From: Escherichia coli
GTDB taxonomy: Bacteria > Pseudomonadota > Gammaproteobacteria > Enterobacterales > Enterobacteriaceae
Length of the DNA stretch: 64,000 nt
NCBI RefSeq assembly: GCF_050320075.1
Contig: NZ_CP190018.1
Strand: one strand, 5' to 3'
Position numbers and translations under genes: made by a program. Each line of letters opens with the position of its first letter. Position 1 is the first letter of the stretch. The notes under the pieces are model-generated. The model made no database searches, was not told where the DNA came from, and saw only the letters and a program-made list of their open reading frames with translations. Shown piece by piece: positions 18,694-20,036 of the stretch.

Positions 18694-18779
18694 ATCAGCC
18701 CGGTCATACATAGTTACCGGGCTGGGTGATGCTGCCAACTTACTGATTTAGTGTATGATGGTGTTTTTGAGGTGCTCCA

Positions 18780-19055
18780 GTGGCTTCTGTTTCTATCAGC
18801 TGTCCCTCCTGTTCAGCTACTGACGGGGTGGTGCGTAACGGCAAAAGCACCGCCGGACATCAGCGCTATCTCTGCTCTCACTGCCGTAAAACATGGCAAC
18901 TGCAGTTCACTTACACCGCTTCTCAACCCGGTACGCACCAGAAAATCATTGATATGGCCATGAATGGCGTTGGATGCCGGGCAACTGCCCGCATTATGGG
19001 CGTTGGCCTCAACACGATTTTCCGCCATTTAAAAAACTCAGGCCGCAGTCGGTAA
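18780..19055 (+). CDS. insA: IS1 InsA (transposition inhibitor / N-terminal part of transposase)
   Basis: 91-aa ORF with zinc-finger-like CPSCS...CSHC N-terminus inside IS1. Confidence 0.93.
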
Positions 19056-19477
19056 CCTCGCGCATACAGCCGGGCAGTGACGTCATCGTCTGCGCGGAAA
19101 TGGACGAACAGTGGGGATACGTCGGGGCTAAATCGCGCCAGCGCTGGCTGTTTTACGCGTATGACAGGCTCCGGAAGACGGTTGTTGCGCACGTATTCGG
19201 TGAACGCACTATGGCGACGCTGGGGCGTCTTATGAGCCTGCTGTCACCCTTTGACGTGGTGATATGGATGACGGATGGCTGGCCGCTGTATGAATCCCGC
19301 CTGAAGGGAAAGCTGCACGTAATCAGCAAGCGATATACGCAGCGAATTGAGCGGCATAACCTGAATCTGAGGCAGCACCTGGCACGGCTGGGACGGAAGT
19401 CGCTGTCGTTCTCAAAATCGGTGGAGCTGCATGACAAAGTCATCGGGCATTATCTGAACATAAAACACTATCAATAA
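18974..19477 (+). CDS. insB: IS1 InsB' frame (expressed as InsAB' transposase by -1 frameshift)
   Basis: 167-aa ORF in the -1 frame overlapping the insA 3' end, within IS1. Confidence 0.9.
19028..19036 (+). other. IS1 programmed -1 ribosomal frameshift site (A6C slippery motif)
   Basis: TTTAAAAAAC motif in the insA/insB' overlap. This is the established IS1 frameshifting mechanism. Confidence 0.75.
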
Positions 19478-19487
19478 GTTGGAGTCA

Positions 19488-20036
19488 TTACCCCTGTGCG
19501 TTATGGTTGTTTATTGAAGATATATGGAAGCTATCATTTGTTAAAGCTATGGTTGTGCTAAAATTATGGTGGTGATCAGCGCTCATGAAATCAAATGTAA
19601 CAATGTCGTTGTTTCCTTTCTTTTCTTTGTGATATGCGTTTAAAAAAGAAATATTTTCGATCTGTTCATCAGTTAATGTAAATGGCATTTCGTCATCAAA
19701 GAAAGCGTAATCGGCATTTGGGAGAGGAATACTCTCAATTGAGCATAGTTTTAATAAAAAAACATGAAAACAATGAAACATGTTTTTATACATAAGAGAA
19801 CTTAATCGCTGTTGTATCTTCTGTAGTTGTCCTTTGGGAAATAAATGCTGTAAATTTGAAAATGAGCCATCTAAAATATATTTATATGTAAAAAGGTCCT
19901 CTCTCTGACCAGTTATCAAAAAATCGTCAGGTGATTTAGAAAAACGATTGAGATGACATAAATATTCCATTTGCTCCGTGTCTATATACTTATGGGGAAC
20001 TACGTAGTTTGGTGGTGTGCCAATAAGATTATCCAT
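19488..20036 (-). CDS. Hypothetical protein, 3' end truncated by IS1
   Basis: 182-aa AT-rich ORF. Its TAA stop (complement of 19488..19490) lies inside the IS1 terminal repeat and the last sense codon spans the IS1 junction. Divergent from the 20345 ORF. No family recognised. Confidence 0.55.
   Translation of the reverse strand: MDNLIGTPPNYVVPHKYIDTEQMEYLCHLNRFSKSPDDFLITGQREDLFTYKYILDGSFSNLQHLFPKGQLQKIQQRLSSLMYKNMFHCFHVFLLKLCSIESIPLPNADYAFFDDEMPFTLTDEQIENISFLNAYHKEKKGNNDIVTFDFMSADHHHNFSTTIALTNDSFHISSINNHNAQG

Follow-up and report, generated by a model that had tools for sequence, protein, structure and literature searches.

In a 64,000-nucleotide stretch of the Escherichia coli contig NZ_CP190018.1 (hereafter the window), a complete copy of the insertion sequence (IS) IS1 stands in the place of 3,964 bp of the Z-locus, an AT-rich island that lies between phoU and yieH. 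The loss is a genuine deletion, both edges of which coincide with an IS1 terminus. It took the whole gene of an 832-residue paralogue of EspY4 together with codons 182-395 of a pentapeptide-repeat gene of 395 codons, the beginning of which survives on the minus strand as a remnant running into the element. A preliminary description of the window had reported a 768-bp IS1 with unlike 9-bp flanks and had attributed to an IS1-associated deletion the missing 3′ part of the adjacent gene and whatever lay between it and phoU. Both statements agree with the sequence and with its alignment to an IS1-free allele, in which the missing DNA extends up to the region just downstream of phoU.

Exact replacement of Z-locus DNA by IS1

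We searched positions 18300..20400 of the window by megablast against 5,426 complete E. coli genomes, the collection to which all counts of complete genomes below refer. Two of them have the identical structure: YZLc1-3, from chicken, and Ec-U3, from human. Many other genomes match the right flank only, where their annotation reads pentapeptide repeat-containing protein followed by espY4. As the IS1-free reference we took CFSAN061763 (locus L001), in which the genes are ordered pstA, pstB, phoU, an 832-residue hypothetical protein, the 395-residue pentapeptide-repeat gene (minus strand), espY4 (802 residues), yieH, and adeP. The corresponding locus of YZLc1-3 is L002, whose coordinates become window coordinates on addition of 12299.

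On the left, window 16689..18724 aligns with L001 1..2036 at 100% identity; on the right, window 19493..26399 aligns with L001 6001..12908 at 99.9% identity. The intervening 3,964 bp (L001 2037..6000; guanine-plus-cytosine [GC] content 30.7%) are exactly replaced by the IS1. The 832-residue protein encoded in the deleted DNA (L001 2389..4887) is 33% identical to EspY4 (L001 6853..9261) over the full lengths of the two proteins, and an NCBIfam search of both matched no family. For EspY4, a faint Pentapeptide_4 match in Pfam is on record and nothing else.

The intact island (7.3 kb; 31.5% GC) matches 1109 of the 5426 complete genomes, about a fifth, and each of these 1109 carriers has a single matching place. 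It follows that the two genomes sharing this junction do not keep the missing 3,964 bp elsewhere. Consistent with this, the number of matching places remained 22 in YZLc1-3 and 26 in Ec-U3 when the query was extended by two 351-bp probes taken from the lost interval. A third assembly has both junctions in one contig of 3.7 Mb, three draft contigs (NCBI, ENA, and Logan) have the right one, and an index of public assemblies lists the exact fusion open reading frame (ORF) in 123 blocks. The structure is not an artefact of assembly, nor is it confined to one isolate: it is the mark of a lineage.

The element itself is intact. It begins with GGTGATGCTGCC and ends with GAGTCATTACC (reference forms of the IS1 terminal repeats: GGTGATGCTGCCAACTTACTGAT / GGTAATGACTCCAACTTATTGAT), and 18 of the 23 end bases pair, in keeping with an IS1 of about 768 bp bounded by imperfect repeats of about 23 bp. 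It has the insA frame and the frameshifted insB′ frame expected of IS1, the latter extending to 19477 (Table 1). In RefSeq the identical sequence in YZLc1-3 is labelled 'IS1-like element IS1B family transposase, programmed frameshift', and the Pfam families Zn_ribbon_InsA, HTH_Tnp_IS1, and DDE_Tnp_IS1 (PF03811, PF12759, and PF03400) match the same genes in locus L009. Within the 64-kb window we found no IS1 end other than those of this copy, and no second copy with a matching flank.

Junctions and the absent target duplication

The 9 bp to the left of IS1 (18716..18724) read ACCGGGCTG and the 9 bp to the right (19493..19501) read CCTGTGCGT; they are not identical. Within 15 bp of the ends the only word common to the two sides is the 4-mer GTTA, at non-equivalent offsets, and no target duplication is present at this copy. 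The ends had been singled out for re-examination in case other end positions should reveal a duplication of 8-10 bp, and none appeared. Shifted ends that hide a duplication are ruled out: the ends are set independently by the IS1-free allele, so no shift can yield one. Nor is there microhomology at either deletion endpoint, and both IS1 termini are complete. Lacking the 8-9 bp duplication of a simple insertion, this copy is not in its original simple-insertion state.

The same script located IS1 in seven other strains. Three of these carry simple insertions in the Z-locus, each with a 9-bp duplication: A3176 (CCTTTTTTA), SCU-313 (TAAATCATT), and B20105 (TGAATTATT). Since duplications were found for these three copies, the method would have detected one in the window. 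The three duplications are AT-rich. The other four strains show no duplication: ET201 and GN25 have IS1 deletions within the Z-locus with other endpoints, in the bgl-type strain PO06101 an IS1 deletion extends from the bgl control region as far as cbrC, and YZLc1-3 has the same allele as the window. Among the strains examined, the island beside phoU has thus undergone at least six independent IS1 events (three simple insertions and three deletions, including the window allele), and it is a recurrent IS1 target. All the IS1 copies examined share one orientation, which carries no meaning and is expected from a search that joins pieces on one strand.

The truncated pentapeptide-repeat gene

Residues 1-181 of the remnant are identical to the intact 395-residue protein (181/181). 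Codon 182 (GGG, Gly; Val in the intact protein) is composed of one base of the gene (19493) and two bases of IS1, and the TAA stop that follows (19488..19490) lies within the right inverted repeat of the element. The minus-strand ORF at 19488..20036 thus matches in every detail what had been described from the window. Comparison with an intact orthologue had been named beforehand as the test of truncation, and its result is clear: the gene continues to 395 residues and has no natural end at residue 181. The intact protein has a Pfam Pentapeptide_4 match at residues 229-304 and weak matches to Qnr-type NCBIfam models at 226-315; the pentapeptide-repeat region (about residues 226-315), its only recognisable domain, falls in the lost part. 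RefSeq already lists the remnant as a pseudogene 'missing C-terminus'.

The position of the stop codon had been presented as a feature worth attention. We find it unremarkable, because every frame that enters IS1 reaches a stop within 1-26 codons: taking all three frames at each end, stops occur after 1, 7, 8 or 26 codons, and in the frame of the remnant GG is followed by TAA, a stop after one codon. Whatever gene IS1 interrupts will terminate within the repeat or close to it, and a stop codon inside the IS1 repeat carries no special meaning.

How the deletion may have arisen

From an exact deletion with its endpoints at the termini of an intact IS1, and with the lost DNA absent, we infer an order of events and a transposase-mediated route. 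The account towards which we lean, with modest confidence, is an IS1 adjacent deletion from an earlier simple insertion. IS1 would first have inserted at one of the two present junctions with a normal 9-bp duplication, the candidate sites being just 3′ of the hairpin downstream of phoU or inside codon 182 of the pentapeptide-repeat gene. Transposase-driven intramolecular replicative transposition (adjacent deletion) would then have targeted the second site, which lies 4 kb off within the AT-rich island. One intact IS1 would have remained, the 3,964 bp and one of the two 9-bp duplicates would have been lost, and the flanks left behind would be unrelated to each other. Endpoints free of microhomology and complete IS1 termini argue for transposase chemistry and against an unrelated deletion whose end fell at the element by chance. 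The expected precursor type (simple insertions with duplication) and deletion products are both present at the locus, which supports this account. More generally, adjacent deletion and IS-IS recombination are documented as frequent causes of missing duplications (PMC11708052).

The case against an adjacent deletion is the lack of an intermediate. Chimeric queries were built to mimic a simple insertion at either junction, one joining the right end of IS1 to ACCGGGCTG and the island, the other joining the gene to CCTGTGCGT and the left end of IS1. Neither was matched contiguously in the complete genomes, none of which has IS1 at one of the two sites with uninterrupted island beyond it; the full-coverage matches to these queries are IS1 copies at other positions. 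An exact look-up of the 182-residue fusion protein in public assemblies returned only the same structure or contigs that end inside IS1, and these contigs are uninformative. Moreover, an adjacent deletion and a recombination between direct IS1 copies leave identical products and are inseparable without an intermediate. The preliminary description had offered these two routes side by side; a deletion of that kind is borne out, and with no intermediate found the two routes do not separate. IS1 is prone to adjacent deletions, and our preference for the single-IS route rests on parsimony and on this propensity, not on data from this locus. The classical IS1 adjacent deletions are those that Reif and Saedler reportedly described in the gal region in 1975.

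A possible though doubtful alternative starts from two independent, like-oriented IS1 insertions, the first just past the phoU hairpin and the second within the pentapeptide-repeat gene, between which homologous recombination would have taken place. Excision of 4 kb and one IS1 by this means predicts the product observed, a hybrid IS1 with one flank from each parent copy. The island has been struck repeatedly (six or more independent hits in the loci compared), the source lineage is rich in IS1 (22-26 matching places per genome), and recombination of this type is a frequent cause of missing duplications (PMC11708052). However, it costs two insertions within 4 kb and a recombination, compared with one insertion and one transposase event for the adjacent deletion, and none of the 5,426 complete genomes carries either the single insertions or both.

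It is unlikely that the structure arose in one step, with an incoming IS1 joining its ends to two targets 3,964 bp apart and never residing there as a simple insertion. We know of no demonstration of such a route for IS1. The complete lack of intermediates fits it, but is weak evidence, as intermediates can be short-lived. Insertion-with-deletion without duplication has been proposed for IS5 and IS481, whereas all 14 IS150 cases followed through time were stepwise adjacent deletions (PMC11708052). If the one-step route were true, the Z-locus, given its further IS1 deletions, would provide a natural case of insertion-with-deletion of the IS5/IS481 type.

The preliminary description suggested that the structure may be the scar of a bgl activation: an IS1 upstream of bgl would have switched the operon on, and bgl would afterwards have been deleted. 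This is not borne out and has almost no chance of being correct. IS1 insertion in the bgl control region is known (PMC11043490), and PO06101 carries IS1 in that region with a deletion from phoU to cbrC. However, the IS1-free allele, whose flanks match those of the window at 100% and 99.9% identity, has the Z-locus and no bgl operon, as do the nearest IS1-free relatives; the sequence just after the phoU stop is Z-type, unlike that of PO06101, whose left flank differs; and the missing DNA is wholly explained by 3,964 bp of Z-locus sequence. No bgl control region is present at this locus, and we reject the proposal.

A misjoin of two IS1-ended contigs can be dismissed: IS copies are classic sites of assembly error, and an indel in an espY4 homopolymer could be a sequencing error, but the same junctions stand in two independent complete genomes and in the 3.7-Mb contig of the third assembly, and the DNA supposedly skipped is not elsewhere in those genomes.

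The Z-locus and its neighbours

Two alternative islands are known beside phoU, bgl-yieIJ or the AT-rich Z5211-Z5214 'Z-locus', the latter in 19% of the strains of that study, in which several strains had either island altered by deletions and insertion elements (Sankar 2009; PMC2646131). The island studied here is of the second kind: it is AT-rich, lies between phoU and yieH in place of bgl, and has two paralogous large ORFs with a smaller ORF between them. O157:H7 genomes match it at 94% identity. We considered whether the IS1 might mark the edge of the island and rejected this, since Z-type and bgl-type sequences already part at the phoU stop, 74 bp to the left of the junction.

Coordinates of the features at and around the deletion are collected in Table 1.

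Table 1. Features at the IS1-associated deletion and its surroundings (window coordinates)
Feature	Coordinates	Strand	Remarks
phoU	17925..18650	+	Intact; last gene of pstSCAB-phoU; core-genome left neighbour; ORF list and RefSeq of YZLc1-3
Hairpin 3′ of phoU	18697..18724	+	Perfect 9-bp stem: CAGCCCGGT, 10-nt loop, ACCGGGCTG
Left junction	18724..18725		Window 18724 = L001 2036; L001 2037 is the first lost base
IS1 (IS1B type), complete	18725..19492	+	768 bp exactly
IS1 left repeat	about 18725..18747		
insA	18780..19055	+	ORF list
InsAB′ transposase	18780..19477	+	Via -1 frameshift at A6C motif TTTAAAAAAC (19028)
IS1 right repeat	about 19470..19492		
Right junction	19492..19493		Window 19493 = L001 6001; L001 6000 is the last lost base
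Pentapeptide-repeat gene remnant, 182 aa	19488..20036	-	ORF list; comparison with intact protein
espY4 (Z5211-type)	20345..22752	+	Kept right part of the Z-locus; frameshifted in the window
yieH	22889..23554	-	Core-genome right neighbour of the island; coordinates converted from L002

The 3′ arm of the hairpin downstream of phoU is the same 9 bp that abut the left end of IS1. The 40-nt stretch that contains the hairpin (18691..18730) has a fold energy of -19.4 kcal/mol, and in IS1-free Z-locus strains the hairpin is unchanged and is followed by ATACACTTTC. The 74 bp from the phoU stop to IS1 form two hairpins (18663..18724), of which the first resembles a repetitive extragenic palindromic (REP) element (GTCAGATAAGGC...GCCGAATCTGGC) and the second ends at the junction; as general background to the REP-like hairpin, REP-type palindromes are described as IS targets (PMC1525189). 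A scan for promoters and terminators around the junctions found no more sites than in shuffled sequence, leaving a regulatory effect unsupported.

The frameshift in espY4 is the loss of one A from an A8 run that ends near 22265: the window and YZLc1-3 have A7, and A8 with an intact espY4 of 802 residues is present in four other assemblies that share the right IS1 junction. Either the frameshift arose after the deletion or it is a homopolymer sequencing error.

A second AT-rich islet (about 35% GC) lies at 32272..34455 on the plus strand, between tnaC/tnaA (30177..31607) and mnmE (34604..35968). Its ORF is intact at 727 residues and is named 'ShET2/EspL2 family type III secretion system effector toxin' in RefSeq, with no NCBIfam match; about 765 of the 5,426 genomes cover at least 80% of the islet.

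Comparison with known systems

The genes of the Z-locus are orphan type III effector-like genes, and the event in the window cost the lineage one EspY4 paralogue and reduced the pentapeptide-repeat gene to a pseudogene of 182 codons. The annotation of the locus should accordingly read IS1-generated Z-locus deletion, and neither a short novel gene nor a bgl-related event. The island as a whole could serve as a natural series on the erosion by IS1 of horizontally acquired, probably H-NS-silenced DNA.

The likeness to the activation of bglGFB by IS1 or IS5 is confined to an IS1 a few tens of bases downstream of phoU. In contrast to that system, the lineage has no bgl operon, the flank is Z-type, and nothing is activated.

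With IS1 adjacent deletions the case shares an intact IS, a deletion that starts from an exact terminus, the lack of duplication and microhomology, and the disappearance of the lost DNA. There is no difference in kind. No intermediate was found that would show which way the deletion ran or where IS1 first inserted. The lesions reported for this region (Sankar 2009; PMC2646131) concern the same phoU-yieH site and the same AT-rich island (about 31% GC) and belong to the same class, described there for the Z/bgl locus as 'deletions and/or disrupted by insertion elements'. In an island where lesions of this sort had been reported before, the event in the window is one more textbook IS1 deletion.
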